Counted from the stretch's first letter, positions 2,522-32,812 are shown. The stretch: DNA of 33,958 bases from Gemmatimonadota bacterium (GCA_050050215.1 JASFUR010000001.1:1-33958), one strand, 5' to 3'. Program-made: numbers and translations. Notes: generated by a model not told the origin, from the letters alone.

Positions 2522-3419
2522 CGACCTCCCGGCCTTCCGCTTCGAGCAGTTCCAGGACTACCTGGGCTACGAGCGCGGCCTCTCCGCCCGCACGGTGGCC
2601 GCCTACACGCGGGACCTGACCCGGTGGCGGACGTTCGTGGTCGGGCTCGGCGTGAAGGAGCCGGCCGACGTCACGCCCCGGCAGATGCGCGAATGGGTCT
2701 TCTCGTTGAAGGACGCCGGCCTCGCGCCGACATCGATCCGGCGGGCCCAGTCGGCGCTCCGGACCTACTTCGGCTTTCTGCTGGCCGAGAAGGCGGTCGC
2801 GGCCGATCCGACGGACCGCCTGGAAGCCCCCAGGGTCTCGCGAAAGCTGCCGGAGTTCCTCACGCTCGACGAGGTCGGACGGCTGCTCGACGCCCTGGAC
2901 GACTCCAAGGCCCTCTTCTGGAGGGACCGGTCGATCCTGGAAATGCTGTACGCCACCGGGGTGCGGGTCTCGGAGCTGGTCGAGCTGCCCCTCACGTCGC
3001 TCGATCTCGAGGAGGGCTTCGTGACGGTCTTCGGGAAGGGGTCGAAGGAGCGCCTGGTGCCGGTCGGGGAGCCGGCCCTAAGAGCCGTCGGGCGCTACCT
3101 GCGCGACGTGCGACCGAGGCTCGACAAGGGGAAGGGCGCCGGGCGGGTCTTCTTGAACGCGCGCGGCGGGCCGATGCGGCGGGAGTCGGTCTGGTCGATC
3201 GTGAAGAATGCGGCGAGTCGGGCCGGTATCGCCAAGACCGTCTCACCCCATACGTTGCGCCATACGTTCGCGACGCACCTCGTCGAGGGTGGAGCCGATC
3301 TCGCGGCGGTCCAGGAGCTGCTCGGCCACGCCGACATCGCCACGACCCAGATCTATACGCACCTGGACCGGGACTACCTCCGCGACGTGCACCGTCGCTT
3401 CCATCCGAGGAGCTCGTAA
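2514..3419 (+). CDS. xerD: Site-specific tyrosine recombinase, XerD-like (XerC/XerD family)
   Basis: 301 aa. The N-terminal SAM-like domain has LSARTVAAYTRDL. The catalytic domain has RDRSILEMLYATGVRVSEL...GKGSKERLVPVG...HTLRHTFATHLVEGGADLAAVQELLGHADIATTQIYTHL and ends in HPR, closely paralleling E. coli XerD as I recall it. The ATG at 2514 overlaps the dedA stop by 8 nt. XerD versus XerC cannot be settled without alignment. Confidence 0.85.
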   Translation: MTDDLPAFRFEQFQDYLGYERGLSARTVAAYTRDLTRWRTFVVGLGVKEPADVTPRQMREWVFSLKDAGLAPTSIRRAQSALRTYFGFLLAEKAVAADPTDRLEAPRVSRKLPEFLTLDEVGRLLDALDDSKALFWRDRSILEMLYATGVRVSELVELPLTSLDLEEGFVTVFGKGSKERLVPVGEPALRAVGRYLRDVRPRLDKGKGAGRVFLNARGGPMRRESVWSIVKNAASRAGIAKTVSPHTLRHTFATHLVEGGADLAAVQELLGHADIATTQIYTHLDRDYLRDVHRRFHPRSS

Positions 3420-3425
3420 GCGAAA

Positions 3426-3453
3426 GGCGGGACCCCCGAGTGGGAGCCCCGCC
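3426..3453. terminator. Candidate bidirectional hairpin between convergent xerD and protease genes
   Basis: GGCGGG (3426-3431) pairs with CCCGCC (3448-3453). An inner CCC/GGG helix sits around a GAGT loop. It lies in the 78-nt gap between two convergent stop codons. There is no clear U-tract. Confidence 0.35.
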
Positions 3454-3497
3454 ATCGCGAAGCGTGCTCTACGGCCGTCTCAGCCCGGGGGCCGGTC

Positions 3498-5138
3498 CTA
3501 GAGAGGCACCCCCGACCGATCCCTGGGCGGCTGCGCGCCCGCGGAGGCGGCCCGACTCGCGCTCTCCTCGTCGGCCTCGCGGAATAGGTCGGCCTGGGTC
3601 TGCGCGCCTTGGAGCAGCCGGATCGCTTCGGAGAGCACCCTGTCGCGCTGAGCGCGGATCTCCGCCTCCGCACCGACGTCGTCCATGCGCGTGGCCACCG
3701 CGATCTCGGCCTGCCACCTCAGGTACTCGCGCACCTGGGGATCTTGCAGGAGGTCCTCGGGAAGGCCCTCCTCGCGCAGCGAGGCGATGAATCCCTCGAA
3801 CTCCTCCGGGGTGATCCCCGGGGCACCATCGGTGGCGCGCAACCGGGTGGCGGCGTCGAAGCCGATCTCCTGGAGCCGTTGACCCAGGGGGAACTGACTC
3901 TCGCTCACGAGACGCACGAACTCCTGCTCGGACGTATAGAGCGTGTCGTCCGCCACCGGGTAGTCGGGGAAGATCCCTCCCCCGTTGATCAGGTCCCGGC
4001 CGCCCGGCGTGGTCACGTGCGGGAGCGTGTCGATGTCCTCGGGCAGCGGACGCATCTGATTGTCACGCGGGCGCTGAAGCGAGCGACCGAGCGGAGTGAG
4101 CCACGATCCGGTGGTGAAGCGAAGGCGCCGATCGTGGGGCAGGGCCAGCACGGTCTGCACGACCCCCTTTCCGAACGTGCGCTCGCCCACGACGAGGGCT
4201 CGGTCGTAGTCCTGCAGCGCGCCCGCCAGGATCTCGGCGCCCGATGCGGTATACCCGTCCACCAGGACGACGATGGGCAGATCCGGCACGCGGACCGGCA
4301 TCCGGTCCATGTAGGAGTCCGTCTCGGGATTGTCCACGGAGCCGCCGGCGCGGCGTTGCACCGTGCTCGCCAGCGTGGAGCCTCTCTCCAGAAAGAGATC
4401 GGCCAAGTCCAGCGACTCGTCGAGGAATCCGCCGGGGTTGCGGCGCAGGTCGATGATCAGGCCCGGGGCGTCGGAGTAGTCCTCGAGCGCCTGGCTCATC
4501 TCCTGGGCGGCGCCACGGGCGACCCGGTCCATGATGACGTAGCCGATGCCGTTGCTCAGTGTGCCATGCTGGACCGCGGGCACGTGCACCTCGGCCCGGG
4601 TGATGTCGAAGGCGAGGGGCTGCTCGTAGCCGGAGCGACGGACCCGCACGTTCACGTCCGTGCCGGCCGGCCCGCGAATCGAGTCGGCCGCCGTCTGAGT
4701 ATCCCAGCTGGAGGCGTCGCGGTCGCCGACACCCACGATGACGTCGCCGACCATGATGCCCGCCTGGCTGGCGGGGAAACCCCGGAACACGGCCGTCACC
4801 GTAACCTCTTCGTTGAGCACGGTGATCTGCAGACCGATGCCGGAGTAGTTCCCGGTGGTCTCCTCCTCCCACTCCTGGGACTCCACCGCGGTGAACAGCG
4901 ATGCGTACGGATCGTCGAGGGACTCGATGAGCCCGTCGATCGCGGCCTCCCAGAGCATGGAGTCGCTGAACTCCTGCATATGCATCCGGGAGATGGCGCG
5001 GACGGCATCCGTGATGACTTCCGCCTCTTCGGGGCGGCGAGAGCTCTGCCTGTCGGCCGTCCCCCGGTCCTGCGCGGAGACACCCGGCACGGCGAGTGCC
5101 ATGGCGAGGATCAGTGCTGGAATCGTGCGAATCTTCAT
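3498..5138 (-). CDS. S41 family carboxy-terminal processing (tail-specific) peptidase with PDZ domain
   Basis: The preferred start is the ATG at 5138, giving [23 protein letters not shown], a signal peptide. The track start at 5171 adds 11 aa. Motifs: YSGIGLQI, a PDZ-like [29 protein letters not shown], and [27 protein letters not shown] (S41 Ser/Lys region). Confidence 0.85.
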   Translation of the reverse strand: [546 protein letters not shown]

Positions 5139-5330
5139 ACGGCGCCCTTCGTTCCGTCGGCTGAGTGACACGGATGTTTAACCCCGGCTCTGCAAGCCCC
5201 GTTCCCTCGAAGAAGCATGGCTCGGTCGAACACCCATCGTATGGTCCCGGGCACGAGAAAGGATACCTTTGTCGCATAACCACCCGGGGCCGGTGACGGT
5301 CCCTGAAACACCGATACGGCAACGCCTTCC

Positions 5331-7136
5331 ATGAATCAAGATCCGGCACGGCCGCCGCTCCGGGTGGCGCTCGTCCAGTTCACGCCGAAAAAGGCGGACA
5401 CCAGCGCGAATCTGGGGCGGGTCTCCGACCTGTTGGCGCAGCAGTCGGCGCACGCGGACGTGGTGGTGTTCCCGGAGACCGCGCTGTCGGGCTATTTCCT
5501 CGAGGGAGGGGTCGCCGAGGCCTCCCTCACGGTGGAGCAGGTCGTCGAGGGGCTCGGCGAGCCTCCAGCGGATGCCGCGGACGTCGTCGTGGGATTCTAC
5601 GAGCGTTGGCGTCGGCGCCTGTACAACAGCGTCGTGTACCTGGAGCCGTCCGAGGGCTCGTGGATCGTCCGGCACGTGCACAGGAAGATGTTCCTCCCCA
5701 CGTACGGCGTCTTCGACGAGGCTCGCTTCGTGGAGCCGGGACGCGAGATGAAGGCCTTCGAGACCCGCTTCGGGCGGTTCGGGCTGCTGATTTGCGAGGA
5801 CGCCTGGCACTCGCTTCCCGGGACGATCCTCGCGCTCGACGGGGCCGAGCTACTCCTGGTCGTGAGCGCCTCTCCGGCGCGCGACTTCGCGCCGTCGGGG
5901 GCCGGGAGGCCGGCCAACCTCGACAAGTGGGACCGGCTCGCGCCGGCCATGGCCAGCGAGCACGGCGTATTCGTCGCGGTCGCGCAGCTGACCGGGTCCG
6001 AGGGTGGCAAGCTCTTTCCGGGCGGCTCCGTCGCCGTGGGACCGGACGGACAGATCCTGGCGAGGGGCCCCATTCTGGAGGAAGCGGTGACCGTGGCGAC
6101 ACTCGACGCGTCGGCCCTCGACCGCGTGCGTGTCGCATCGCCCCTTCTCTCGGACCTCGAGCAAGTGGTCCCGCAGCTCCAGCGGTCGCTCGATCGCGTC
6201 ACGGATCACGGCGGCGCGGACGAGGAGGAGACCGACGAGATCGAGGAGCCCGTGGACATGCACCATGCGCTGTCCGGAAGGGGCGAGCCCGCGCCCGCGG
6301 ACGGCACGCTGCACGACCCGCACGCCCTCGACATCGACCTCGATCTCGTGGAGCGCACGTTGATCGAGTTCATCCGGGAGGAGGTGCAGAGGCGTCGCGG
6401 CTTCGAGCGCGTCGTCGTGGGCGTCTCGGGTGGCGTGGACTCGGCCGTCTCACTCGCCCTGGCGTGCCGCGCCCTGGGGTCGGAACACGTGCACGGCTTC
6501 CGGCTCCCCTACCGCACGTCGAGCGAGGAGAGTCTCGAGCATGCGACGCTGGCGCTGGAGGCCACGGGAGCGCAGTCCCACACCATCGACATCAGCGACC
6601 CCATCGACCGGTACGTGGAGGAGTACGAACCCGACATCAGCCCCCTGCGGAAGGGCAACCTGATGGCCCGGCTGCGTGCGGTCGTCCTCTTCGACCAGTC
6701 GGCCAAGCTCGGTGCGCTCCCGCTGGGCACCGGAAACAAGAGCGAGCGCCTGCTCGGCTACTTCACCTGGCACGCGGACGACTCGCCGCCCATCAACCCC
6801 TTGGGAGATCTCTTCAAGACCCAGGTCTGGGCGCTCGCGAGGCATCTCGACGTCCCTGACGTGATCGTCGAGAAGCCTGCCACCGCGGACCTCGTTCGTG
6901 GCGTCACCGACGAGGACGAGCTCGGCGTCTCCTACCACGACGCAGACCCGATCCTGCACTGGCTGCTGAGGGGGTACCGGGCCGACGAGCTGGTCCGGGT
7001 CGGCTTCGATGCACAGGCCGTCGAGCTCGTATCACGACGGCTCCAGTCGACGCATTGGAAGCGGGAGCTGCCGACGGTGGCGGTGCTCTCGTCCAGCGCC
7101 ATCGGCGAGTTCTACCTGAGGCCGGTCGACTACTGA
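5331..7136 (+). CDS. nadE: Glutamine-dependent NAD(+) synthetase (N-terminal CN-hydrolase/nitrilase domain fused to NAD synthetase PP-loop domain)
   Basis: 601 aa. The N-terminal half has the nitrilase-fold pattern (VVFPETALSGY...GLLICEDAWH). The C-terminal half has the PP-loop VVGVSGGVDSAV plus GTGNKSE and the ATAD...DE..LGVSY motifs typical of NadE. Confidence 0.9.
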   Translation: MNQDPARPPLRVALVQFTPKKADTSANLGRVSDLLAQQSAHADVVVFPETALSGYFLEGGVAEASLTVEQVVEGLGEPPADAADVVVGFYERWRRRLYNSVVYLEPSEGSWIVRHVHRKMFLPTYGVFDEARFVEPGREMKAFETRFGRFGLLICEDAWHSLPGTILALDGAELLLVVSASPARDFAPSGAGRPANLDKWDRLAPAMASEHGVFVAVAQLTGSEGGKLFPGGSVAVGPDGQILARGPILEEAVTVATLDASALDRVRVASPLLSDLEQVVPQLQRSLDRVTDHGGADEEETDEIEEPVDMHHALSGRGEPAPADGTLHDPHALDIDLDLVERTLIEFIREEVQRRRGFERVVVGVSGGVDSAVSLALACRALGSEHVHGFRLPYRTSSEESLEHATLALEATGAQSHTIDISDPIDRYVEEYEPDISPLRKGNLMARLRAVVLFDQSAKLGALPLGTGNKSERLLGYFTWHADDSPPINPLGDLFKTQVWALARHLDVPDVIVEKPATADLVRGVTDEDELGVSYHDADPILHWLLRGYRADELVRVGFDAQAVELVSRRLQSTHWKRELPTVAVLSSSAIGEFYLRPVDY

Positions 7137-7137
7137 G

Positions 7138-7159
7138 GGGTCGGCTCGTGCCGACCCCG
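7138..7159. terminator. Perfect 9-bp stem / 4-nt loop hairpin between convergent genes (candidate bidirectional terminator)
   Basis: GGGGTCGGC tcgt GCCGACCCC sits immediately after the nadE stop (7134-7136) and 15 nt from the stop of the minus-strand lipoprotein gene. Confidence 0.55.
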
Positions 7160-7173
7160 GCCGTGGGACCCGG

Positions 7174-9078: not shown

Positions 9079-9657
9079 ATGCTGCTCGTCATCGACAACT
9101 ACGACTCCTTCACGTTCAACCTCGTCCAGTTCCTCGGGGACCTGGGTGCGGACCCGGTCGTGGTGCGCAACGACGAGAAGAGCGTCGACGAGCTGGTCGA
9201 TCTCGGCCCGGAGCGTGTGGTCGTCTCGCCGGGGCCGTGCACGCCCCGAGAAGCCGGCGTGAGCATCGAGGTCTTCCAGAAGCTGGGAGGGCAGGGCACA
9301 CCCATGCTCGGCGTCTGCCTGGGCCACCAGAGCCTGGGCGAGGCGTTCGGCGGCCGCACGGTTCGTGCACGCCGGATCATGCACGGCAAGACCGGGCCGG
9401 TGCGGCACGGTGGTGAAGGGATCTTCGAGGGCGTGCCTTCGCCCTTCGAGGTCGCGCGCTACCACTCGCTCGTGACCGACGCGGCCGTGCTGCCCGCCGA
9501 GCTCGAGCCGATGGCGTGGAGCACCGATCCCGCGGACGAAGGGGAGGTGCAGGCCATGCGGCACCGCGAGCTGCCGCTGTGGGGCGTGCAGTTCCACCCC
9601 GAGTCGCTCTTCAGCGAGCACGGAAAGACGATCCTCGCGAACTTCCTGACCCTCTGA
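9079..9657 (+). CDS. Anthranilate / aminodeoxychorismate synthase component II (class-I glutamine amidotransferase, TrpG/PabA)
   Basis: 192 aa with a classic N-terminus MLLVIDNYDSFTFNLVQ. It has the catalytic GVCLGHQ and the C-terminal GVQFHPES motifs. No trpE/pabB partner lies in the window, so TrpG versus PabA is left open. Confidence 0.9.
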   Translation: MLLVIDNYDSFTFNLVQFLGDLGADPVVVRNDEKSVDELVDLGPERVVVSPGPCTPREAGVSIEVFQKLGGQGTPMLGVCLGHQSLGEAFGGRTVRARRIMHGKTGPVRHGGEGIFEGVPSPFEVARYHSLVTDAAVLPAELEPMAWSTDPADEGEVQAMRHRELPLWGVQFHPESLFSEHGKTILANFLTL

Positions 9658-10219: not shown

Positions 10220-10323
10220 CGCGATCGCGACCCGTCACCTCGCACCTGGGATGTTGCGGTCGAGAAGCCCCGGGAAGGGCTGGCCGCAGGTTGACCCTCA
10301 CCCCCGGTTTCAGGTAGCTTCCC

Positions 10324-10374: not shown

Positions 10375-12818
<2,444 letters not shown>

Positions 12819-16732: not shown

Positions 16733-17593
16733 GTGGAGGCTTCATTGACGACGACGAACGGCAGCCGCCTGTGGGCCGAGGGGCTCACGAAGATCTATCG
16801 AGGGCGGAAAGTCGTGAACGACGTCGACATCAGCGTCGAGCAGGGCGAGATCGTCGGCCTGCTCGGTCCGAACGGCGCCGGGAAGACGACGACGTTCTAC
16901 ATGATGGTCGGGCTCATCCCTCCGGCCTCCGGCACGGTGCACCTGGACGACGACGATCTCACGCGGACGCCGATGTTCAAGCGCGCCCGACGGGGAATCG
17001 GCTACCTGGCTCAGGAGCCGTCGGTGTTCCGGAAGCTGACGGTCGAGGAGAACGTTCTCGCGATCCTCGAGACCATGGGGCTCTCCAAGGCCGACCAGAA
17101 GGCTCGGCTGAACGAGCTCCTCGACGAGCTCGGGCTGCTCGGCCTACGTGAGCACAAGGCGTATTCGCTGTCCGGCGGTGAGCGACGCAGGTTGGAGATC
17201 ACGCGGGCGCTCGTGCAGGAGCCGAAGTTCATGCTTCTCGACGAGCCCTTCGCGGGCATCGATCCCATCGCGGTGAACGACATCCAGGAGATCGTGCAGG
17301 GCCTCCGAGGGAAGGGGATCGGCGTCATCATCACCGACCACAACGTCGAGCAGACGCTCGAGATCGTGGACAGGGCCTACATCATGTACGACGGAAAGAT
17401 CGGCGTGAGCGGCACGGTGTCCGAGCTCGTCTGGAACGACGAGGTCGCCCAGGTCTATCTCGGCCCGATCCTGACGGCGCGCATGCGCCAGCGGTTCCCG
17501 GAGCCCGAGGTGGCCGCGGTCGCGCAGGTCACCGAGCCCATCGGGGCGCAGGACGCCGCCACGGGCTCCCCGGACGAAGTCTCCGCGGAATGA
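16733..17593 (+). CDS. lptB: LPS export ABC transporter ATP-binding protein
   Basis: GTG start at 16733. It has Walker [12 protein letters not shown], the signature [11 protein letters not shown], Walker [14 protein letters not shown] and an H-loop ITDHN. About 35 extra C-terminal residues follow the usual LptB end. Confidence 0.9.
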
Positions 17594-17632: not shown

Positions 17633-19141
17633 ATGAGCGGCTTCAACACGAAGCTCTACCAGAGCCAACAGCTCCGGCAGGACATGCGGATCAACCCTCG
17701 CCTGTACCAGGCGATGGAGTTGCTCTACATGCCGCTCCTGGATCTCGAGCAGCATCTCAAGGAGGAGATGGCCGAGAATCCGTTCCTCGAGATGACCGAG
17801 GCCGAGGAGCAGCAGGAGGTCGAGCTCAAGGAGGACACCCAGGACGAGCCCATGGGCGACGACGACGTCGACTGGGAGGAGATCCTCCTCGACGGCTTCG
17901 AGGTCGGCGGCCGCCGCCAGCAGTACGAGCAGAAGGAGTTCTACGAGCCCACGCCCGTCGAGGCCGAGGACCTGCACGACCATCTGCTCGAGCAGCTCCG
18001 GCTCCTCTCGGTCTCGGAGCGCGAGCTGCGCCTCGGCGAGGAGATCATCGGCAACGTCGACGACTCGGGCATGTTGGCGTGCAGTGTCGAAGAGGTCGTC
18101 GACGGGGTCAACGAGTGGCTCGAAGAGGTGCGTCCGACCGCCGTCGAGACCGCCGAGGGCATCGAGGACGAGGAGGAGCGCGCCAGGGAGCTGGCGGAGA
18201 TCGACGAGCTCTTCCGTCCGTACGAGACGGTGGAGGGCGAGCGGATGCTCACGGTGGTGCAGGCCTTCGACCCCCCCGGAATCGCGGCCCGTGACGTCAG
18301 GGAGTCCATCCTGATCCAGCTTCGCCAGCGGGACGAGGAGGGCACGCCCCAGTACGAGATCGTCGACGAGCATTTCGACGCGCTCATCAACCACCGCTGG
18401 AACGACATCGCGCGGGACCTCGGGATCACGCCCAAGGAGGTCCAGGACGCCTGCGACGAGATCAGCCATCTCGATCCGAAACCGGGGCTGAAACACTCGG
18501 TTGCGCCGGAGCAATACGTGATCCCGGATCTCATCGTCGAGAAGATCGACGGCGAGTACATGGTCTTCGCCAACGACACCAGCCTGCCGCGGCTGCGCAT
18601 CTCCCAGTCCTACAGGGACGTGGCTCGCAACAAGAACAAGTTCAAAGGCGAGAACAAGGAGTTCATCGCGAGCAAGCTGAACTCGGCCAACTGGATGATC
18701 CAGGCGATCGAGCAGCGCCGTCAGACCATGCTCAAGGTCATGAACTTCATCGTGGACCGGCAGCGCGACTTTTTCGAGCGCGGCGTGCAATACCTCAAGC
18801 CGCTGACGCTCCGCGAGGTGGCCGACTACATCGAGATGCACGAGTCGACCGTCTCACGCGTGACCAACAAGAAGTTCGTGCAGACTCCCCGAGGCGTGTA
18901 CTCGCTCAAGTACTTCTTCTCGAGCGGGCTCTCCACTGTGGGTGGTGAGGACCTCTCGGCCAGGGCCGTGAAGGACAAGATCAAGCACATGGTCGCCGAC
19001 GAGGACGAGAAGAAGCCGCTCACGGACCAGGCGATCGTGAAGCTCCTCAAGGCCGACGGCGTCAAGATCGCGCGCCGCACGGTAGCCAAGTATCGCGACC
19101 AGATGGGTATTCTCCCCGCTCGCATGCGGAAGCGGGTGTGA
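17633..19141 (+). CDS. rpoN: RNA polymerase sigma-54 factor
   Basis: 502 aa. The N-terminal region I is Gln/Leu-rich (LYQSQQLRQDMRINPRLYQAMELL), followed by an acidic region II. The HTH is ESTVSRVTNKKF. The RpoN box ARRTVAKYR lies near the C-terminus. Confidence 0.95.
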   Translation: MSGFNTKLYQSQQLRQDMRINPRLYQAMELLYMPLLDLEQHLKEEMAENPFLEMTEAEEQQEVELKEDTQDEPMGDDDVDWEEILLDGFEVGGRRQQYEQKEFYEPTPVEAEDLHDHLLEQLRLLSVSERELRLGEEIIGNVDDSGMLACSVEEVVDGVNEWLEEVRPTAVETAEGIEDEEERARELAEIDELFRPYETVEGERMLTVVQAFDPPGIAARDVRESILIQLRQRDEEGTPQYEIVDEHFDALINHRWNDIARDLGITPKEVQDACDEISHLDPKPGLKHSVAPEQYVIPDLIVEKIDGEYMVFANDTSLPRLRISQSYRDVARNKNKFKGENKEFIASKLNSANWMIQAIEQRRQTMLKVMNFIVDRQRDFFERGVQYLKPLTLREVADYIEMHESTVSRVTNKKFVQTPRGVYSLKYFFSSGLSTVGGEDLSARAVKDKIKHMVADEDEKKPLTDQAIVKLLKADGVKIARRTVAKYRDQMGILPARMRKRV

Positions 19142-20938: not shown

Positions 20939-21601
20939 TCACGTGGCGCGCCGACATACGAAGCTGAACTGGTAGGTCCAGCGGAGGGGAATCACGGCCC
21001 GCGCGACCGTGCGCAGCGTGCGCGTCCAGAACCCGGCCGGCTTCGTGTGCCAGGGCTCCTTCTCGACACGCGCGACCCGGAGGCCTCGACGCTCGATGAG
21101 CGTGCGCCAGCCCGTCAGGTCGAGCAGCAACTCCTGCGCCTCCTGTTGCTCAGTCCCTCCGGAGCCGCGGAGGCGCCACACGATGAAGTCCGCGTTGGGG
21201 ACCACGAGCAAGGCGACGCCGTCCGGTCGGAGCACACGCGCTACCTCGGAAATGCCCACGGCGGGATCGAGGAAATGCTCGAGGCTGCCCAGGCACATGA
21301 CGACGTCGAACGCGGCGTCCCGGAAGGGGAGGGCCTCGCCTGCCGCGCGGGCGAGCCCCGCCGACGGGGTGCGGGCCCGCGCGAGCGCGACCGCGTTGGG
21401 GGCGATCTCCACGCCGAACGGGTCGAGCCCCACCTGCTCGGCATCACGCAACAGAAAGCCCTCACCGCATCCGATGTCGAGCAAGCGTCCCCCCGTGCGC
21501 GCCCCCACCGTGCGCAGGTACGTGCGGTAGTCGCGCATCGATCCCGGCGGATGCGTGTAGCGTCGGGTGTAGAACTCCTCGACGTCGCGCCGCGTGCTCA
21601 C
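20939..21601 (-). CDS. Class I SAM-dependent methyltransferase
   Basis: The real gene is the C-terminal 220 aa of track ORF 20939..22387. The GTG at 21601 overlaps the stop of the upstream gene (GTGA). It has SAM motif I LLDIGCGEGFLL and motif II DVVMCLGSLEH. The upstream part of the long ORF is Arg/Pro-rich and overlaps a better gene in another frame. Confidence 0.8.
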   Translation of the reverse strand: MSTRRDVEEFYTRRYTHPPGSMRDYRTYLRTVGARTGGRLLDIGCGEGFLLRDAEQVGLDPFGVEIAPNAVALARARTPSAGLARAAGEALPFRDAAFDVVMCLGSLEHFLDPAVGISEVARVLRPDGVALLVVPNADFIVWRLRGSGGTEQQEAQELLLDLTGWRTLIERRGLRVARVEKEPWHTKPAGFWTRTLRTVARAVIPLRWTYQFSFVCRRAT

Positions 21602-22497
21602 GCCCGCCTGCGCAGCAGCAGCAGGGCCGGGATGACCTCGCCTGTCATGGTCCACAGTCGTGCCCCGATCGCGACGGCCGCCGCCACCCCGAGCGGCATG
21701 ACACCGCTCAGCAACAGGGCGAGGGCTCCCTCCTTGGCGCCCAGGCCCGCCGGCGCGATGACGACGACGTATCCTGCGACGAACGAAAGCGCGAAGCTCG
21801 CGACGAGATGAGGGAACAGGGCGATGGGGGCATCGGTGAGGCTCGCCGTGAACGCGTGGAAGGCCGCGCCGTATACGAGCCACTGGCCCGTGCACATGAC
21901 CAGGAGCACCGCGGCGTCGACGGTAGTACCCCGCCAGGGGCGGAGCTCGCGCTTCAGCAGGCGCCCGGGAATCCGCAGAGCAGCTCGCACGAGCGCAGGA
22001 TGCAGGAGGAGCAGCGCCATCGGCGCGACCCAGCGAGCGACGACCAGCGGCGCCTCGAGGGCCGGGATCGCATCCAGGGGAAACAGGTAGACGCCCAGCA
22101 CCGATGCGGACAGCGTCGCGTACAGCATGTAGAGCGCCAGGGAGGTGATCGACGTCACGGCGTCGATCCCGAGGGCGCGGGCCATGTCGGCCACGCCGAC
22201 CAGCTGCCACACCTTGCCGGGGATGTAGCGGCCCAGGCTGGACACGAACCAGACGCGTGCGAGGGGAACGAGGGCGACGTCGTGATCGAAGGCGGCGAGG
22301 ACGCGTCGCCAGATGACGGCGCTTCCCATCAGGCCGCATAGGAGCAGGGCGATCGACAGGGCCAGCCATCCTCCTTCGAACGACCAATCGTAGGCGAGCA
22401 GCTCCTCGCGCCTTCCCACGACCGCGCGCACCAGAAAGAAGAGCGCTGCGACGATGAACAGCGTGCCGGCGAGGCGGCGCAGGAAGCTCCGGCTCAA
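21598..22497 (-). CDS. Flippase-like / lysylphosphatidylglycerol-synthase-TM-domain (UPF0104) family membrane protein
   Basis: This is the C-terminal 299 aa of track ORF 21598..23838. The TTG at 22497 overlaps the TGA of the upstream YfhO-like gene (TTGA). It has eight or so hydrophobic helices and the SLGRYIPGKVW and APAGLGAKEG motifs I associate with UPF0104/TIGR00374. Confidence 0.7.
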   Translation of the reverse strand: MSRSFLRRLAGTLFIVAALFFLVRAVVGRREELLAYDWSFEGGWLALSIALLLCGLMGSAVIWRRVLAAFDHDVALVPLARVWFVSSLGRYIPGKVWQLVGVADMARALGIDAVTSITSLALYMLYATLSASVLGVYLFPLDAIPALEAPLVVARWVAPMALLLLHPALVRAALRIPGRLLKRELRPWRGTTVDAAVLLVMCTGQWLVYGAAFHAFTASLTDAPIALFPHLVASFALSFVAGYVVVIAPAGLGAKEGALALLLSGVMPLGVAAAVAIGARLWTMTGEVIPALLLLRRRA

Positions 22498-24905
22498 GCG
22501 GATTCGGGGGGAGGGGCGGCCCGGCGCGCGCTCAGCACCGAGACGACCGTCACCACCAGGAGCACCCCGGCGGCCAGAAGCGTGATGACGAGCCCGATGC
22601 GGAGGGAGGGGGGCTCGAACGTGAACGTGACCGTGTGCGTTCCGGCCGGAATCGGAACGGCGCGGAAGGTGTGGTACGCCCGCAGGACCCGCGCCGGAGC
22701 GTCGTCGACGCGTGCGACCCAATCGGGATAGTAGTTGTCCGTCAGAACCAGGAAGGCGGGCTGATTGCTTTGGACCTCGACGTCGACCCTGGCGGGGTCG
22801 TGCCGTGTCACTCGAGCGTCGGCCTGCAGCGTGCTCGGGTCGGACCCACCCGAGACGGTATCGTAGACCAGGGCAGCCCGGAGCGGATCGAACCCTTCCT
22901 CCTGCATCGCCCTGAGCGCGCCGTCGGGCTCCGGCACCTGCTCCGCCGCGGCCACCACGAACGCTCTCGGCAATGCCGTCGTGTTCCGGTAGACGATGGC
23001 GGACCGCCCGTTTCGCGTTCGTCCTCGGAACACCGGCTCGAAGATCGGTGATTGGACGTTCTGCTGCGTCAGCACGTATCGGGCGTTCGCGAGGGCGAGG
23101 AACACGGGGTTGTTCATGTTGCTGAAGTCCGTGTACGAGGCCCCACTCGTGCCCAGGAACTCGTTGTAGGCCTGCAGCTGGTTGCCGTGCTCGCCCCCCA
23201 CGATCTCCAGATCGAAGAGCGTGAGGTAGTCGTCCTGCGGCAGGTCCGGAAGCACGAAGGTGCGGAAGGGACCATCCTGTGTGCTCAGGAACTCGACGAT
23301 CTCGTCCCGTGGAAAGACCTGATCGGGACCCGGGATCGCCTCGATGAACCGCCGATCGATGACCCAGAGGTCCGTCACGACGATGATGCCGATGAGGATC
23401 CCGGCTGCGCGGAGCGGCAGCTTGCCGCGCAGCCATGCCCACAAGGCGCCGAGGGTCACGCCCGTGAAGAGAACGAAGCGCCACGCGCCCGGAGGGTACG
23501 TCGGTCGCTGAGCACCCTGGGTCGAGGCGATCAGGCCCCAGAGCACCGCGACCCCGCCGGCAGCAAGCATGACCCGGGTCGCGGTGGCGAGCTCGCTGGA
23601 CGCGGCGGCACGCTCCGCCTTGCGTCGCCCCGACGCCGCCTCCTCGCGCAGCGTCGAGAGGCGATCGAGCGCGAGGCCCGCGACCACCACGATGCACAGG
23701 ATGAAGAGGAAGAAGGCCAGGGACGGCGCTCGAAACCGAGCCGTGCCCGGCAGCACCGCGTAGTAGAGCCGGTAGATCGGCGTGTATCCACCGAAGGCGA
23801 TGGTCAGTATGAACAGCGCGAGCCCGCCGAAGAACCACGCGACCCGGTCACGTCGCAGCACGTAGACGCCGACGACGGCGAGCAGCAACGCGAACGCGCC
23901 CAGGTACTCGGTGTGCAGCTTGAACGGGTTGGCGCCTCGGTACGCGTCGAGGATGCCGGCCTGCTCGGGTACGGCGAGCCCGGTGATCTCGACCGGCGGC
24001 ATCGACCACGAGGTTGCGTACTCGTAGCCGCGTCCGGGCCCCGCTCGCGGCGACGCGTCCACGTATCCGGCGAACGGGAGGAAGTTGACGGCGTTGAGCG
24101 CAAACGCCGCCGTGAGCATGAAGGCCGCTCCGGAAAGCTTCCTCACGACCCGCTCGGGGAAGCGGAAGAGGAGGAAGACTCCCCACAGACCACCCGCGAG
24201 GAGGACGTAGTAGGCGCTCTGTATCTGGAACGAGAGCATGGCCGAGCCCAGCACGAAGCCGCCCAGCGCGAACCAGCGTAGCCCACCCGTACGCACAGCC
24301 CGGTGGAGCGCGAAAAGGAAGAACGGCGCCAAGGTGGCCACGATCGTGCGCCCGTCGTGCCCCCCGTACACGTACGAGATCAGGTATCCCGAGAACATGA
24401 ACGAGAGACCCGTCAGCCACGCTGCGAAGCGCCTCGCCCCCAACTCGCGCAGCAGCGCGTACGTACCCCAGCCGGCGAGCACGAACTGCACGACGAAGAT
24501 GATCGCCAGGTGCTTGTACGTCGGCACGCCGATGAGCCGAAGGACGAGGGACACCGGGTAGTAGATGTCCATCGAGTTGGCGAAGTACGGCACGCCCCCG
24601 TACACGTACGGGATCCATTTCGGTAGCTCGCCCGCCTGGAACTGATGCGTCACGAACTCCTCGAAGATGTAGCTGATGGCGAGGTAGTCCGTGCCGAAGA
24701 TCTGCATCCCGGGCATGAGCGCCGGCATGAAGAGGGCGATGGCGAGGACGACGTAGCTGCCGATGAGCAGCAGGGGAGGGAAGAACTCGTCGCCGGAGTC
24801 GTCGCCCGACCGCTTCTTATCGCTCACGTACGGAGCTCCAGCTTCATGCCACACAACCCGACGGGAATCGCCGTCGACCGTGTCATCATCGATGTGCTCC
24901 GTCAA
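22494..24905 (-). CDS. YfhO-like polytopic membrane protein (putative GT-C fold glycosyltransferase)
   Basis: About 800 aa with many transmembrane helices in the first two thirds and a C-terminal extracytoplasmic domain. That domain ends LVLTDNYYPDWVARVDDAPARVLRAYHTFRAVPIPAGTHTVTFTFEP, then a final TM helix, a pattern I recognise from YfhO family proteins. The start is ambiguous: TTG at 24905, GTG at 24854 or GTG at 24827. Confidence 0.7.
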   Translation of the reverse strand: MTEHIDDDTVDGDSRRVVWHEAGAPYVSDKKRSGDDSGDEFFPPLLLIGSYVVLAIALFMPALMPGMQIFGTDYLAISYIFEEFVTHQFQAGELPKWIPYVYGGVPYFANSMDIYYPVSLVLRLIGVPTYKHLAIIFVVQFVLAGWGTYALLRELGARRFAAWLTGLSFMFSGYLISYVYGGHDGRTIVATLAPFFLFALHRAVRTGGLRWFALGGFVLGSAMLSFQIQSAYYVLLAGGLWGVFLLFRFPERVVRKLSGAAFMLTAAFALNAVNFLPFAGYVDASPRAGPGRGYEYATSWSMPPVEITGLAVPEQAGILDAYRGANPFKLHTEYLGAFALLLAVVGVYVLRRDRVAWFFGGLALFILTIAFGGYTPIYRLYYAVLPGTARFRAPSLAFFLFILCIVVVAGLALDRLSTLREEAASGRRKAERAAASSELATATRVMLAAGGVAVLWGLIASTQGAQRPTYPPGAWRFVLFTGVTLGALWAWLRGKLPLRAAGILIGIIVVTDLWVIDRRFIEAIPGPDQVFPRDEIVEFLSTQDGPFRTFVLPDLPQDDYLTLFDLEIVGGEHGNQLQAYNEFLGTSGASYTDFSNMNNPVFLALANARYVLTQQNVQSPIFEPVFRGRTRNGRSAIVYRNTTALPRAFVVAAAEQVPEPDGALRAMQEEGFDPLRAALVYDTVSGGSDPSTLQADARVTRHDPARVDVEVQSNQPAFLVLTDNYYPDWVARVDDAPARVLRAYHTFRAVPIPAGTHTVTFTFEPPSLRIGLVITLLAAGVLLVVTVVSVLSARRAAPPPESA

Positions 24906-26362: not shown

Positions 26363-26881
26363 ATGGCCTGGGAAATCGAGCGACGCTTTCTGGTGCGCGT
26401 GGCCGATGCCATGTGGCTCCGTCTCGGCGAGGGGTACCACCTGCGACAGGGATACATCCGGAACGGTCAGCCATCGGTGAGGATCCGCATCGGAGAGCCC
26501 AGAGGGGCGGTCCTGACGTGCAAGAGCGGGAAGGGGATCCGGAGGGAAGAGCACGAGGCCGTCGTCCCCGACGAGCTCGCGACGGTCCTTTTCGAGGCGG
26601 CTGAGGATTGCGTCATCGAGAAGATCCGCTGGCACGTGGGGGACTGGGAACTGGATCGCTTTCTGGGCCCTTTGGACGGGCTCATCCTCATCGAGATCGA
26701 GCTCGAGTCCGAGGATCAGGCGATGCCTCCGGTCCCGGAGGGAGTCCATATCCTGCGTGAGGTCACAGACGATAAACGCTTTGTCAGTGGGTACTTAGCT
26801 CGTATGTCTGACAAGAAGCAGAGGAAGCTCGTGAAGAAGGTCTACAAGGAGGTGAAGGGATGGGACGGTCTCAGCGGCTAG
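26363..26881 (+). CDS. CYTH domain protein (triphosphate tunnel metalloenzyme family)
   Basis: The ATG at 26363 has GAAGGA 7 nt upstream. The N-terminal MAWEIERRFLV is the ExExK-type CYTH signature. Alternating charged beta strands follow (RIR, LTCK, EIELE). A Lys-rich C-terminal tail is encoded by a locally AT-richer stretch. Confidence 0.75.
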   Translation: MAWEIERRFLVRVADAMWLRLGEGYHLRQGYIRNGQPSVRIRIGEPRGAVLTCKSGKGIRREEHEAVVPDELATVLFEAAEDCVIEKIRWHVGDWELDRFLGPLDGLILIEIELESEDQAMPPVPEGVHILREVTDDKRFVSGYLARMSDKKQRKLVKKVYKEVKGWDGLSG

Positions 26882-27414: not shown

Positions 27415-27600
27415 TCCGATCCCATCGGAAGGACCATCGCTCCTCCGGGGTCAGCGCAGGTCCGCAGGTGTTCGGGCCCTCCGGGGCGCATCCCTCCAGG
27501 CGCATGAGCATCCGAGTGTACGCGGTGGGGCAGTCGGATCACCCGATTCGGCGTGTTCCGGGGCCGCTACCCAGGTGGAGATCCCATGGGCTCGTTCTTA

Positions 27601-27628
27601 GAATAACATAATACATATTATACGAAGC
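27601..27628 (-). other. dif: dif-like XerC/XerD chromosome-dimer-resolution site (28 bp)
   Basis: The minus strand reads GCTTCGTATAA-TATGTA-TTATGTTATTC. E. coli dif is GGTGCGCATAA-TGTATA-TTATGTTAAAT. That gives 8/11 in the XerC arm, 4/6 in the spacer and 8/11 in the XerD arm, with TTATGTTA exact. It is the only strongly AT-rich patch in the window. It lies in the longest intergenic gap (383 bp), between convergent genes. Confidence 0.7.
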
Positions 27629-27698
27629 ACTCCGAGGTCGCATACGGAGTGGGATCCGGTACCAATGCCCCGGTGATCTTCGACGACGACCGAGTCGT

Positions 27699-27738
27699 GG
27701 CCCGCACGGACGAATCAAGCGTGGAGTCCGTGCGGGCC
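27699..27738. terminator. Perfect 13-bp inverted repeat hairpin downstream of the TPR gene (candidate terminator)
   Basis: GGCCCGCACGGAC (27699-27711) and GTCCGTGCGGGCC (27726-27738) are exact reverse complements with a 14-nt loop. It lies 60 nt beyond the stop of the minus-strand gene 27798..28490. There is no U-tract. Confidence 0.4.
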
Positions 27739-27797
27739 GACGAGTTGATCAGAGGCTGACAGCGCGGCACGGAGGCGCCGGCGCGATGGGAACGAGC

Positions 27798-28490: not shown

Positions 28491-28553
28491 ACCGGGATCA
28501 CTCCGAGGGGTGGTCTGGAGAGCGCAAAAACCTAGATGTGGCGGTGACTCGGG

Positions 28554-29303
28554 TCAACGCGAGGTGCGCATGTCCCGTGGCGGGTCCGCCGGCGCTTCAC
28601 TCGGACGGTCGTAACCCGCCAGAGCCCACAACCCAGCGTGCTTCTGGATACAGACGCAACCGTTCGACGACGTGGAGAGAATGCCGTCGTAGAGCCAGTC
28701 GTTCAGAAGCGTCGTGACCGTGGCGCGGTGGGAGCCGGCGAGGTCGGCGAGCACCTGGTGCGTGAGGCGTTCGGGGATCTCGATCCGGCGGCCGTCCGGC
28801 TCTCCGCAGCGGTCGGCCACGTCGAGGAGCACCTCGGCGAGCCGCTGGGCGGCCGTGGGACCGCGCGAGCCCCCCTGCGCGTGACGCAACCGGTGCAGCT
28901 CCCGCTCGACGCCGTCGAGATACGCGTCGAGGCTCTTCCTCGCCGTCTTGAGGCCGTGGAGCACCCCCGTCTTCGGCAGCGGAAAGACCGTGCACGTGGC
29001 GCCTGCGATGGCGCCGTACCGGCGGTGTCCCTCGGTGAACGCTTCGTCGCCGAAGAGCTCCCAGGGGAGCGCCACACCCACGGTGCGCTCCGGTCTGCCC
29101 TTGTCCATCGCCGGGAGCACGAGGCGCATGTATCCCCGCTGGACGAGGAAGACCTCCCTGGCCGTATCCCCGGCGGCGTACAGCGAGCGTCCCTTCACCA
29201 GGGAGATGGGCTCCGCCTTCTTCACGAGTCGGTACAGCTTGCGATCGCGTGGCGGACTGAGACGAAACGGCAAGTTCGGAGGTCGGCCGAGGGTAGAGGG
29301 CAT
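28554..29303 (-). CDS. Crp/Fnr family transcriptional regulator
   Basis: The preferred ATG at 29303 gives 249 aa; the upstream part of track ORF 28554..29561 overlaps the DUF423 gene region. It has a cNMP-binding-like beta roll (GDTAREVFLVQRGYMRLVL...FGDEAF) and a C-terminal HTH (THQVLADLAGSHRATVTTLLNDW). There is no N-terminal Cys cluster, so it is not a classical FNR. Confidence 0.8.
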   Translation of the reverse strand: MPSTLGRPPNLPFRLSPPRDRKLYRLVKKAEPISLVKGRSLYAAGDTAREVFLVQRGYMRLVLPAMDKGRPERTVGVALPWELFGDEAFTEGHRRYGAIAGATCTVFPLPKTGVLHGLKTARKSLDAYLDGVERELHRLRHAQGGSRGPTAAQRLAEVLLDVADRCGEPDGRRIEIPERLTHQVLADLAGSHRATVTTLLNDWLYDGILSTSSNGCVCIQKHAGLWALAGYDRPSEAPADPPRDMRTSR

Positions 29304-29408
29304 GCATTCGGGCAGCGGACCAGAGACCCAGGATAATGGCGCGCCGCACGACTCGCGAGCGGCGGGGGCACACTGGCGCGGCCCCGCCCCGAATGCGAAC
29401 GTCCTCGC

Positions 29409-29783
29409 ATGACATCCGTACGCATGTTCTTCCTGCTCGGCTCGCTTCTCGGCGGCCTCGGCGTCGGGCTCGGCGCGTTCGGAGCTCACGGGCTTCAGCG
29501 GGTGCTGAGCGCCGACGATATCTCGACGTTCGAAATCGGCGTCCGCTACCAGATGTACCACGCGCTGGCGCTGCTGGCCGTGGCCTGGGCGGCATCCAGG
29601 TGGGAGTCCGGCGCGGTTCTCGCCTCGGGTTGGCTCTTCGTCGCCGGCATCGTGCTGTTCTCGGGGAGTCTCTACCTGCTGGCCCTGACCGGCTCGCGGT
29701 GGCTCGTCTGGATCACGCCCGTGGGGGGCCTGACGTTTCTGCTCGGTTGGGCCGCTCTCGCCTGGAGCGCCTTCCGCGGATGA
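29409..29783 (+). CDS. DUF423 (YgdD/TMEM256 family) small membrane protein
   Basis: 124 aa with four hydrophobic helices and the GAFGAHGL...YQMYHALALL motifs characteristic of DUF423. Confidence 0.8.
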   Translation: MTSVRMFFLLGSLLGGLGVGLGAFGAHGLQRVLSADDISTFEIGVRYQMYHALALLAVAWAASRWESGAVLASGWLFVAGIVLFSGSLYLLALTGSRWLVWITPVGGLTFLLGWAALAWSAFRG

Positions 29784-30547
29784 GCGGCGACCTCGAGCGC
29801 GCCCGTGATCTCCTGGGTGGCGCCGAGCGCATCGCGGTTCTCACGGGAGCGGGCGTGTCCGCCGAGTCGGGCGTGCCGACGTTCAGGGGCGCACAGGGGC
29901 TGTGGAAGTCCTACCGGCCCGAGGAGCTCGCCACCCCGCAGGCCTTCGCCCGCGATCCCAGGCTCGTCTGGGAGTGGTACGCCTGGCGACGGGCGTTCAT
30001 CGCCGAGTGCATGCCGAATGCCGCGCACACGGCCCTCGCGCGGCTGGCTCTGGGCGGCGACCGCGCGACCATCGTCACCCAGAACGTGGACGGACTCCAT
30101 CACCGGGCCGCGGAACAAGTCGCGGAGGACGATCAGCGACCCGAGGACGCTTATCCGCTCGAGGTCCACGGCGCCATCCACCGGGACCGCTGCGGCGAGT
30201 GCGGGCGCAGGAGCCCCGGCACGCAGGACGTCGACGCCACGGCCCTCGAGACCCTCCCGCGCTGCCCCGTCTGCTCGGGCCTGCTGCGCCCCGACGTGGT
30301 CTGGTTCGGAGAAGCGCTCGACGCCGACGTGATCGGGGCGGCGTTCGAAGCCGCCCGCGCCGCGGACGTCTGCCTGGTCGTGGGAACGAGCGCCATCGTG
30401 TACCCCGCGGCGTCGGTCCCCGAGGTCACCGTTCACGCCGGCGGGGCCGTCATCGAGGTCAACCCCGAATCCACGCCGCTGACCTCGCTCGCGTCCGTCA
30501 GCTTGCGGGGGCCCGCCGGGGAGCTCGTACCCGCGCTCCTCGCCTGA
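29780..30547 (+). CDS. cobB: NAD-dependent protein deacylase/deacetylase (Sir2 family, CobB-like)
   Basis: The ATG at 29780 overlaps the DUF423 TGA (ATGA). The upstream part of track ORF 29336..30547 is Arg-rich junk overlapping DUF423. Motifs: VLTGAGVSAESGVPTFRG...LW, TQNVDGLH, a Zn ribbon CGECG...CPVCSG, LRPDVVWFGE and VVGTSAIVYPAA. Confidence 0.9.
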   Translation: MSGDLERARDLLGGAERIAVLTGAGVSAESGVPTFRGAQGLWKSYRPEELATPQAFARDPRLVWEWYAWRRAFIAECMPNAAHTALARLALGGDRATIVTQNVDGLHHRAAEQVAEDDQRPEDAYPLEVHGAIHRDRCGECGRRSPGTQDVDATALETLPRCPVCSGLLRPDVVWFGEALDADVIGAAFEAARAADVCLVVGTSAIVYPAASVPEVTVHAGGAVIEVNPESTPLTSLASVSLRGPAGELVPALLA

Positions 30548-30567
30548 GCTCGAGACGCCACGAAGGC

Positions 30568-30600
30568 CGCCCGAGCGCAGGAACTTCGGAGACTCGGGCG
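30568..30600 (+). terminator. Candidate hairpin after cobB
   Basis: CGCCCGAG (30568-30575) pairs with CTCGGGCG (30593-30600), giving an 8-bp stem and a 17-nt loop, 21 nt after the cobB stop. There is no clear U-tract. Confidence 0.3.
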
Positions 30601-30766
30601 TCATATGAGGTGAGGCATCTGAGGGATCCGGAGCCGATCCCGGCGTCGGGCCGTAACATCCCCGCGGGCCGATAATGTTGGCGTCCGGCGCGCGTGATCG
30701 ACTAACATTGCACCGTGCGTCTTCCCCACCGACGTGCCCGTACTTCCGACCAACCGGGACCGCTTC

Positions 30767-32812
30767 ATGAGGCACCTTCGTCCGTCCAGGATCCTCGCGC
30801 TGCTCCTTCTGGCCGCGTGCAACAGCGGGACGACGGTCGTGGAGGTGGAGGTGGGGAGCATCAACGTCTCTCCCGCCTCCGCTGCCCTCGAGGTGGGCCT
30901 GACGCTGCAGTTCACCGCGGAGGTGCTCGACGATTCCGGCTCACCCCTCACGGGCCGGACGGTCACGTGGGAGTCGAGCGTGCCGGGCGTCGCATCCATC
31001 GACTCGGACGGTCTGGCGACCGGGCTCACCGAGGGTACGACGACGATCACCGCCACGGTCGACGGCGTGAACGGGAGCCGGTCCCTCACGGTCTCGGCCG
31101 CGTCGTGCAGCACGGTCACGGACGTCACGCTGAGCCCCGGCGAGTTCGCCTCCTTCCCGGGGGACGAGTGCCTGCTCCTGCCGGCCGGCTCGGCCGGTGA
31201 CACGTACCGGGTCGCCCTGGCCCGGCCGACGCTCATCCCCATCGAGAGCAACGTCCCGGACGTGACGCTCTACATGGACCCCGTCGCGATGGCCGCGGCT
31301 CCGCCGGCCGGTGAGGGCCCACGCGCCGCGTCCGTTCCGGCAACGGTCCTGAGACGGGATCCCGGGGTGGGCACCATCGACATGAGTCGCTCGCTCCGCC
31401 ACCTCGAATGGCAGGACGCCACGCGTGCCTTCCACAACGAGCTCCGCCTCCGCGAGCGCAACCTGAGGTTCGGCCCGGACGCGGTGCTTCCTCGCACTCC
31501 TCCGGGCCTCGCGGGTGCACCCCCGGCGCTCGTGGATCCGCCGGCGACCGACAGCATGTTCCTCCAGCTCGACTGCAGCGACACGACGGCGTGGAAGCAC
31601 GTGACCCTCATCGCGTTCAGCAACACCCTGGCGGTCTACCAGGAGACCGCCGAGCGGGACACCGCGGCCATCAGCACCCAGGCGGCGCAGGAGCTCATCG
31701 ACTACCACGACGCCTACGTCCGCGACATGGTGCAGCAGTACTGGGGCTCCATCCCGGATACCGACGCGAACGGCCGCGTCAACGTGGTGACCACGCCGAA
31801 CCTCGGCGAGAACGTGGCGGCGGCCGTCTACAGCGGGGACTACATCCAGAGGAACGCGGGCTGCCCGAGCTCGAACGAGGGCGAGACCGTCTACTTCAAC
31901 GGTCCCCTGATGGCCGATCTCGCTCCGAGCACCGGCGAGGCGGACTACTACGCCCTCGGCACGATCGCCCACGAGATGAAGCACGTCGTCTCGCTCTACA
32001 ATGGCATCCAACGTCCTACGGGATTCAACGACATCTGGGTCGAGGAGGGGACGGCGGAGGTATCCCAGGAGATGTCGTCCCGTTACGCGTGGGCCGCGAA
32101 CGGCGGGCCTGCCGTCGGCGACCAGATCACGGCGTTCCAGCTCTACCAGGCGGCGACGGGCGGGCTCCTGGACCGGGAGATCACCGGCGTGATCGACGTG
32201 CTCGCGGGCACGGTGCGCTCGCTGGCCTCGCAGCCCAACAGCGTGATCACGGACCCCGACGGCGCGGCCGAGGGCCACTCGTTCTACTCGACCGGCTGGC
32301 ACTGGCATCGGTGGCTCGGCGACGCGTTCGGCGGTGCCTCCGAGGCCATGGACTCGGCGTTCTTCCGCGAGCTCACGGACCCCAACACCCCGGCCGGCGG
32401 CACCACGGGTGAGATCCAGCTGACCGGCGAGGGGAGCTTCGAGCAGCTCTTCGAGGACTTCGTGGTCGCGGTGAGCCTCCACGGGACCGGGTATACCGCG
32501 CCCTTCCCGATCGACACGTGGGACTTCGTGGGCGCGGCGAACATCTTCTCGAACCCCGACCCGCCGGGCGACTACCCCTGGCCGGTGACGGCGACCGAGT
32601 CTGGGAGCGGCGCCACGGAGACCAAGCAGCAGTGGGCTCCGTTCGGCACGGCGACCTACTCGAGCCCGATCGGGCCGTCGGGCGTGCGCTTCCACGACTT
32701 CCGCTCGTCGGGAACCAATGACGTGCAGATCCATGCGTCCGCGAACCTGGCGCAGCAGTGCGACGGCGCCGCGGATCGCTGCGACCGCATCATCGTGTCG
32801 CGGATCGACTGA
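30767..32812 (+). CDS. Lipoprotein with N-terminal bacterial Ig-like (Big_2) domain and a HExxH putative zinc-metallopeptidase domain
   Basis: The ATG at 30767 gives MRHLRPSRILALLLLAACNSG, a lipobox. The Big_2-like segment is VSPASAALEVGLTLQFTAEVLDDSGSPLTGRTVTWESSVPGVASIDSDGLATGLTEGTTTITATV. HEMKH occurs at LGTIAHEMKHVVSL, with a downstream WVEEGTAE as a possible third-ligand Glu. Confidence 0.65.
   Translation: MRHLRPSRILALLLLAACNSGTTVVEVEVGSINVSPASAALEVGLTLQFTAEVLDDSGSPLTGRTVTWESSVPGVASIDSDGLATGLTEGTTTITATVDGVNGSRSLTVSAASCSTVTDVTLSPGEFASFPGDECLLLPAGSAGDTYRVALARPTLIPIESNVPDVTLYMDPVAMAAAPPAGEGPRAASVPATVLRRDPGVGTIDMSRSLRHLEWQDATRAFHNELRLRERNLRFGPDAVLPRTPPGLAGAPPALVDPPATDSMFLQLDCSDTTAWKHVTLIAFSNTLAVYQETAERDTAAISTQAAQELIDYHDAYVRDMVQQYWGSIPDTDANGRVNVVTTPNLGENVAAAVYSGDYIQRNAGCPSSNEGETVYFNGPLMADLAPSTGEADYYALGTIAHEMKHVVSLYNGIQRPTGFNDIWVEEGTAEVSQEMSSRYAWAANGGPAVGDQITAFQLYQAATGGLLDREITGVIDVLAGTVRSLASQPNSVITDPDGAAEGHSFYSTGWHWHRWLGDAFGGASEAMDSAFFRELTDPNTPAGGTTGEIQLTGEGSFEQLFEDFVVAVSLHGTGYTAPFPIDTWDFVGAANIFSNPDPPGDYPWPVTATESGSGATETKQQWAPFGTATYSSPIGPSGVRFHDFRSSGTNDVQIHASANLAQQCDGAADRCDRIIVSRID

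Follow-up and report, generated by a model that had tools for sequence, protein, structure and literature searches.

An octamer matching the FtsK-orienting consensus points towards dif in a Gemmatimonadota lineage

The stretch of DNA studied here, referred to as the window, comprises 33,958 nucleotides and is the whole of contig C1 of a Gemmatimonadota metagenome-assembled genome (468 contigs, 3.34 Mb, 68% GC, 86.5% complete). It contains a dif-like 28-mer and a series of copies of the G-rich octamer GGGNAGGG, which matches the FtsK-orienting polar sequences (KOPS) of E. coli, and almost all of these copies point towards the 28-mer. The locus raises the question of whether this octamer guides FtsK to dif in a phylum distant from the Proteobacteria, or whether its orientation simply follows from gene orientation and base composition, a possibility already allowed for in the original prediction, which was made from the window alone.

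We find a real polarity that follows the replichores, is specific to the sequence and has its centre at dif, and regard this as practically certain. We further propose that GGGNAGGG is, in all likelihood, the KOPS of this Gemmatimonadota lineage, with the gamma domain of FtsK as its probable reader, because it is an exact match to the KOPS consensus, its gradient is centred on the terminus, and a full FtsK-XerCD-dif set is present.

Octamer copies and the dif site in the window

Counting the motif on both strands of the window gave 13 copies of GGGNAGGG at the positions originally listed, 11 on the plus strand and two on the minus strand, and, as had been predicted, all but one (12/13, 92%) face the dif-like 28-mer at 27601-27628. 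To the left of this site there are 11 plus-strand copies and one minus-strand copy, and to its right no plus-strand copy and a single minus-strand one, the window spanning the last 27.6 kb of one chromosome arm and 6.3 kb of the other. Our gene calls, obtained with a home-made codon-statistics model, likewise bear out the two earlier statements on gene context, namely that four plus-strand copies (4137, 21326, 22508 and 24773) lie antisense to minus-strand genes, and that five GGGAAGGG copies in plus-strand genes encode Gly-Lys-Gly in frame. Altogether, the plus-strand copies are distributed as six sense, four antisense and one intergenic (10272). The copies, the dif site and xerD are the following:

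2514-3419, plus strand: xerD, encoding the tyrosine recombinase on which FtsK acts as activator at dif (TIGR02225, 346.7 bits, above the 329.6-bit cut-off), 24 kb from dif, carrying two in-frame GGGAAGGG copies directed towards dif
3033-3040, plus strand: GGGAAGGG, towards dif; sense, in frame as Gly-Lys-Gly inside xerD
3129-3136, plus strand: GGGAAGGG, towards dif; sense, in frame inside xerD
3975-3982, minus strand: GGGGAGGG, away from dif, the sole wrong-way copy; sense in the minus-strand gene 3498-5138
4137-4144, plus strand: GGGCAGGG, towards dif; antisense to gene 3498-5138
9289-9296, plus strand: GGGCAGGG, towards dif; sense (Gly-Gln-Gly) in gene 9079-9657
10272-10279, plus strand: GGGAAGGG, towards dif; intergenic
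11226-11233, plus strand: GGGAAGGG, towards dif; sense in gene 11148-12818
17309-17316, plus strand: GGGAAGGG, towards dif; sense in gene 16745-17593
21326-21333, plus strand: GGGGAGGG, towards dif; antisense to gene 20939-21601
22508-22515, plus strand: GGGGAGGG, towards dif; antisense to gene 22494-24827
24773-24780, plus strand: GGGGAGGG, towards dif; antisense to gene 22494-24827
26528-26535, plus strand: GGGAAGGG, towards dif, 1.07 kb left of it; sense in gene 26363-26881
27601-27628, minus strand: dif, with 11-6-11 arrangement of XerC arm, spacer and XerD arm, in a convergent intergenic gap
32501-32508, minus strand: GGGAAGGG, right of dif and aimed back at it; antisense to gene 30734-32812

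Read on the minus strand, the window dif is identical to E. coli dif at 20 of 28 bases, and it is single-copy in its own genome. A search with the exact 28-mer, allowing up to 3 mismatches, returned no match in 60 other genera of the family, because the outer arms vary too much; the core pattern ATAA-N6-TTATGT worked, being found in 52 of 61 relatives, in most of them as a single copy, and almost never in the reversed control. This tally takes in the unpublished genomes G005 and G090, and the unpublished G140 entered another part of the analysis; none of the three underlies a sequence-level claim. The consensus built from 28 family sites is ACTTCGTATAA-TATATA-TTATGTTAAGT, with 75-100% conservation of the bases beyond the searched core. 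Closed relatives carry dif opposite dnaA, at a distance of 48.7% of the circle in G067 and of 49.9% in G011.

In G059, a dif-core-like sequence, ATAATTTACATTATGT, occurs in three copies at 249-bp spacing (G059:C1 207,294-207,807), with one more at 2,501,837, a pattern suggestive of a repeat or mobile element that carries a dif-like core, and the true dif of this genome is probably the site at 3,700,496. The cumulative GC skew of the window, calculated in 2-kb windows, peaks at about 28-30 kb, 1-2 kb to the right of dif and not exactly on it.

The orientation switches at dif in the genome and in closed relatives

As there is only one copy in the 6.3 kb to the right of dif, the window alone is unable to show a flip in orientation. 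We therefore turned to the rest of the genome and to four closed relatives, which are not independent samples: G067 belongs to the same genus, G011 to another genus of the same family, and G085 and G094 to other families of the same order. The best match to the genome of the window is the closed same-genus contig G067:C1 (CAWBNF010000001.1; 4,049,665 bp), in which the copy of the query gene (window 17633-19138, called rpoN in a separate early prediction) is also about 10 kb from dif, so that local synteny is retained. Although it is a single 4.05-Mb contig, G067 is 69% complete with a coding density of 0.80 by our own caller, which suggests indel (frameshift) errors from long-read assembly; these could alter some G-runs, though not in a replichore-dependent manner.

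For the own genome, 136 contigs (1.05 Mb) were placed by blastn on 1.6 Mb of G067. A genome-wide switch at dif had been named beforehand as the test on which the prediction stood or fell, and the switch is there: with C1 excluded, the contigs carry 86 plus and 16 minus copies to the left of dif, and 14 plus and 77 minus copies to its right (Fisher P = 3.5e-23), and within 100 kb of dif 33 of 39 copies (85%) are aimed at it. The polarity is also visible in the unordered contigs, where the 775 copies have a per-contig orientation coherence, defined as summed |plus minus minus| divided by the total, of 0.706, against a null of 0.544 +/- 0.02. When the contigs were oriented by GC skew and C1 was omitted, GGGCAGGG and GGGGAGGG ranked first and second of 65,536 octamers by skew z. 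Orienting by GC skew alone was nevertheless rejected as a procedure, since it underestimates the motif skew (0.73-0.80, compared with 0.85 by G067 synteny).

In G067, 27 of the 29 copies (93%) within 50 kb of dif are aimed at it (13 plus and 2 minus on the left, 0 plus and 14 minus on the right). The same pattern extends to 200 kb (36 plus and 6 minus, then 8 plus and 48 minus) and to 600 kb (108 plus and 23 minus, then 38 plus and 127 minus), with a density around dif of one copy per 3.4-4.1 kb. Scanning all breakpoints over 1.2 Mb (296 copies) placed the best switch point between -69 and +3091 bp from the dif core. Within 200 kb of dif, the plus and minus counts are 49/13 on the left and 20/52 on the right in G085, where the switch is at +1.3 to +3.4 kb, and 37/8 and 10/33 in G094, where it is at -5.7 to +0.8 kb. 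In G011 the 30 kb on either side of dif behave in the same way (11 plus and 1 minus on the left, 0 plus and 7 minus on the right), and the global best switch point is about 115-120 kb to the right of dif. This displacement is due to a block at +40 to +120 kb of dif (G011:C1, about 1,761,800-1,841,800) in which the GC skew is positive and GGGNAGGG runs in the plus orientation (6/3 and 8/3 per 40 kb), both opposite to the rest of the arm; we take the block for a recent inversion or for an error of assembly, and not for evidence against a switch at dif.

The copies thus lie on the leading strand of both replichores, running 5' to 3' from origin to dif, and both polarity and density rise towards the terminus.

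The skew does not depend on genes, GC skew or codons

The original prediction was to be given up if the bias were fully explained by G>C skew or by Gly-Lys-Gly codon usage. It goes beyond both, as judged from gene-context, Markov and origin-gradient tests, and only 69 of the 775 copies encode Gly-Lys-Gly. In the pooled relatives (2.4 Mb), GGGNAGGG has the same leading-strand fraction in leading-strand genes (0.78; 270/77) as in lagging-strand genes (0.78; 94/26), and a similar one in intergenic DNA (0.74; 112/40), whereas in the same three contexts the composition-matched mirror word GGGANGGG gives 0.75, 0.47 and 0.63, and the control word GGGNGGGG 0.84, 0.49 and 0.59. Codon-derived words such as GCTGGTGG and CATCNAGG invert, with values of 0.22-0.37 in lagging-strand genes.

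For an unbiased scan, 98,304 families of octamers, each with one free position, were ranked by the lowest of their z values in the three gene contexts. In the relatives GGGNAGGG came first (z 5.84, next family 3.83), most of the runners-up being shifted versions of it, and it was first again in the own genome without C1. The three-context test replaced rankings by raw z or by order-1 Markov-corrected values, in which codon-derived words (GCTGG and CATCGAGG types) outrank GGGNAGGG, because these leave uncontrolled the fact that 70% of genes are on the leading strand. A substitution scan defined the word further: the gene-independent skew, 0.76 for the word itself, falls to 0.38-0.62 on any change at the seven fixed positions (1-3 and 5-8), and position 4 is free, with A, C and G giving 0.78, 0.78 and 0.71. 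A longer motif or a repeat element was rejected, as the flanking bases carry at most 0.03 bit each. The copies use all reading frames, frame-0 Gly-X-Gly being the commonest class (191 of 651 genic copies).

The gradient along the chromosome points in the same direction. The leading-strand GC skew is constant along G067 (0.025-0.028), whereas the motif skew, 0.49 within 200 kb of the origin, reaches 0.76 at a distance of 200-600 kb from dif and then 0.86 and 0.93 in the nearest 200 kb and 50 kb. In the region around dnaA (2,947,128; G067:C1 2,747,001-3,147,000) GGGNAGGG is unbiased (28/29) and at half density (1 per 7 kb), and several further words are likewise unskewed there; the gene-strand bias around this origin is 56.5%, compared with about 70% near dif, and the GC skew is as strong as elsewhere.

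In the own genome and in G067 alike, the observed skew of 0.79 exceeds the 0.62-0.73 expected from Markov models of order 1-6; where it amounts to 0.785, the models give 0.62-0.72, the value of 0.62 being that of order 1. Over-representation relative to such models, which had been expected of a true FtsK-orienting sequence, is seen on the leading strand, with 419 copies against 255-346 expected; the lagging strand has a deficit, with 115 against 130-209.

FtsK, XerC/XerD and the gamma domain

The recombination machinery is encoded in the same genome. Besides xerD in the window, a XerC-like paralogue is present at C239:2687-3577, which scores best as XerC, below the XerC cut-off, and contig C152 encodes an FtsK with alpha, motor and gamma domains (PF17854, PF01580 and PF09397, the last with 90.7 bits), whose gamma domain is alignable with the solved gamma domains of P. 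aeruginosa and E. coli.

Residues reported to matter in the E. coli gamma domain are R1300, E1303 and E1306 (PMC2680272), and for P. aeruginosa the residues S766, Q769 and N777 are given for KOPS recognition, as cited in PMC9764985. The comparison with the gamma domain called for in the original prediction came out in favour of KOPS recognition in part only: the equivalents of Ser766, Gln769 and Arg1300 are kept, whereas Glu1303 is replaced by Asp and the base-contacting Asn (N777) by Gly. The motif GYGRAAR(I/V)(I/V)DQL is common to all six Gemmatimonadota FtsK proteins that were read.

If FtsK works here as it does in E. coli, P. aeruginosa and V. cholerae, its hexamers, anchored at the septum, would load on the octamer in one orientation, through their C-terminal gamma winged-helix domains. 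The loaded FtsK would then pump DNA until it meets XerCD bound at dif, where the gamma domain would activate XerD and so allow chromosome dimers to be resolved.

Comparison with known guide words

The KOPS of E. coli, V. cholerae and P. aeruginosa (also called FtsK recognition sequences, FRS) have a consensus identical to the word found here, including the degenerate fourth position. The two share the location of leading-strand copies aimed at dif, the switch at dif, the rise in skew and density towards it, a skew above the GC-skew prediction, and the accompanying set, made up of a three-domain FtsK (alpha, motor and gamma), XerD, a XerC-like gene and a 28-bp dif of canonical form. They differ in the host, here a member of the Gemmatimonadota at 68% GC, and in density, the present word being 3-5 times denser (one per 2.6-4.3 kb, compared with one per 12-22 kb) and yet not over-represented overall. 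They differ also in skew, which is about 0.79-0.85 on the arms, 0.85-0.93 near dif and nil within 200 kb of the origin, compared with 0.91 and 1.0 in E. coli. In addition, the gamma helix is GYGRAARIVDQLE in place of GYNRAARIIEQME. In the window the density is one per 2.6 kb, the KOPS criterion being at least one per 40 kb in the dif region. According to PMC3384302, validated guide words occur once per 10-22 kb, and their skew is 0.79-0.91 over the whole genome and 0.90-1.0 in the dif region. A precedent outside the Proteobacteria is provided by the FtsK of D. radiodurans, which binds GGGCAGGG (PMC9764985).

The SpoIIIE recognition sequences (SRS; GAGAAGGG / GAGNAGGG) of B. subtilis and the KOPS of L. 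lactis (GAAGAAG) are likewise polar guide words for an FtsK/SpoIIIE translocase, with comparable skews of 0.79 genome-wide and 0.90 near dif (PMC3384302). They differ in sequence, and when position 2 of the present word is changed from G to A, giving GAGNAGGG, its gene-independent skew drops from 0.76 to 0.57, so that the SRS form is not the selected word in this lineage. The architecture imparting sequences (AIMS) of Hendrickson and Lawrence, as cited in PMC3384302, are skewed octamers whose skew rises towards the terminus, and GGGCAGGG is such an octamer in most Proteobacteria. AIMS are a statistical class with no assigned reader, whereas the word found here coincides with the FtsK consensus. 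Our literature searches found no paper on KOPS or AIMS in Gemmatimonadota or Gemmatimonas.

Weighing FtsK as the reader against other explanations

Several observations weigh against the assignment of GGGNAGGG as a KOPS read by FtsK. The word is not over-represented overall, with 775 copies in the own genome compared with 927 of the mirror word, and its total of 13 in the window is not clearly above chance either (7.3 +/- 3.1 in shuffled sequence, with 13 reached in 6 of 100 shuffles), so that the signal lies in orientation and not in number. The order-1 correction ranks it 76th of the 98,304 families, below many codon-derived words, and before gene strand is controlled for, its skew is almost matched by that of other G-rich words, for example GGGCGGGG. 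Taking a skew of 90% within the dif region as the working cut-off of Nolivos et al., the formal dif region of G067 (7% of the genome) falls just below it at 88% (61/8), and the own contigs within 100 kb of dif are also below it, at about 85%. On the protein side, the six Gemmatimonadota FtsK proteins read all have Gly at the position of Asn777, and at that of E. coli E1306 they have Glu (own genome), Phe (G067) or His (the remaining four). If the same octamer is read despite the Asn-to-Gly exchange and the variation at position 1306, the KOPS word may be far more conserved than the residues proposed to specify it, through different contacts or through DNA shape together with the gamma trimer, or else the reader may be other than FtsK; we offer this only tentatively, and hold it to be rather doubtful.

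The explanation that competes best with FtsK is that GGGNAGGG is a replichore-polarised architecture imparting sequence kept for another leading-strand process, such as a Chi-like RecBCD/AddAB hotspot or another DNA-tracking protein. The reader cannot be named from polarity alone, the base-contacting Asn of the proteobacterial gamma helix is not kept here, and Chi sites are likewise G-rich octamers enriched on the leading strand, that of E. coli (GCTGGTGG) being itself skewed here (0.73). However, Chi differs from the present word, whose gradient is centred on dif, in sequence and in its dependence on genes: GCTGGTGG tracks gene strand, with 0.87 in leading-strand genes and 0.22 in lagging-strand genes, and GGGNAGGG does not. 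To our knowledge, no known Chi sequence is identical to GGGNAGGG, whereas its seven informative positions are exactly those of the known FtsK consensus, with the same free position 4. Moreover, the polarity is nil at the origin and maximal at dif, with a switch within 3 kb of dif, and therefore fits a reader that acts at the terminus. In our view these findings make a reader other than FtsK unlikely, and FtsK the better candidate.

Much less probable still is that the polarity arises secondarily from G>C skew, from the excess of leading-strand genes and from Gly-Lys/Gln/Glu-Gly coding, with no selection of its own. Such an origin would agree with the approximately 70% of coding bases on the leading strand near dif, with the correlation of motif orientation with GC skew (rho 0.49), with frame-0 Gly-X-Gly being the most frequent class, and with the skew of further G-rich words. 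It does not account for a skew that is equal in lagging-strand genes and intergenic DNA, that is lacking in gene-independent form in the composition-matched mirror word, that single-base changes at fixed positions abolish, that exceeds the Markov expectations at all orders from 1 to 6, and that falls to 0.49 close to the origin in spite of an unchanged GC skew. Finally, a chance run of one orientation, for which a window count within the shuffle range and the single copy right of dif might speak, is scarcely credible given 11 of 12 copies pointing one way left of dif (binomial P = 0.003 for p = 0.5, and 0.027 for the composition-expected p = 0.62) and a matching polarity both elsewhere in the genome and in four closed relatives. 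Taken by itself, the window is weak evidence, and it is the rest of the genome together with the relatives that settles the polarity.

Implications

By these results the window lies at the terminus of replication in a fragmented metagenome-assembled genome, whose contigs can be ordered and oriented with the direction of GGGNAGGG as a signal. The combination of gene-strand-stratified and substitution scans gives a clean separation of true guide words from artefacts of codon usage and GC skew. With GGGNAGGG as the probable KOPS of this lineage, the guide word of proteobacterial FtsK would extend, base for base, to the Gemmatimonadota, and the signposts that steer FtsK in E. coli very probably work likewise in this distant phylum.

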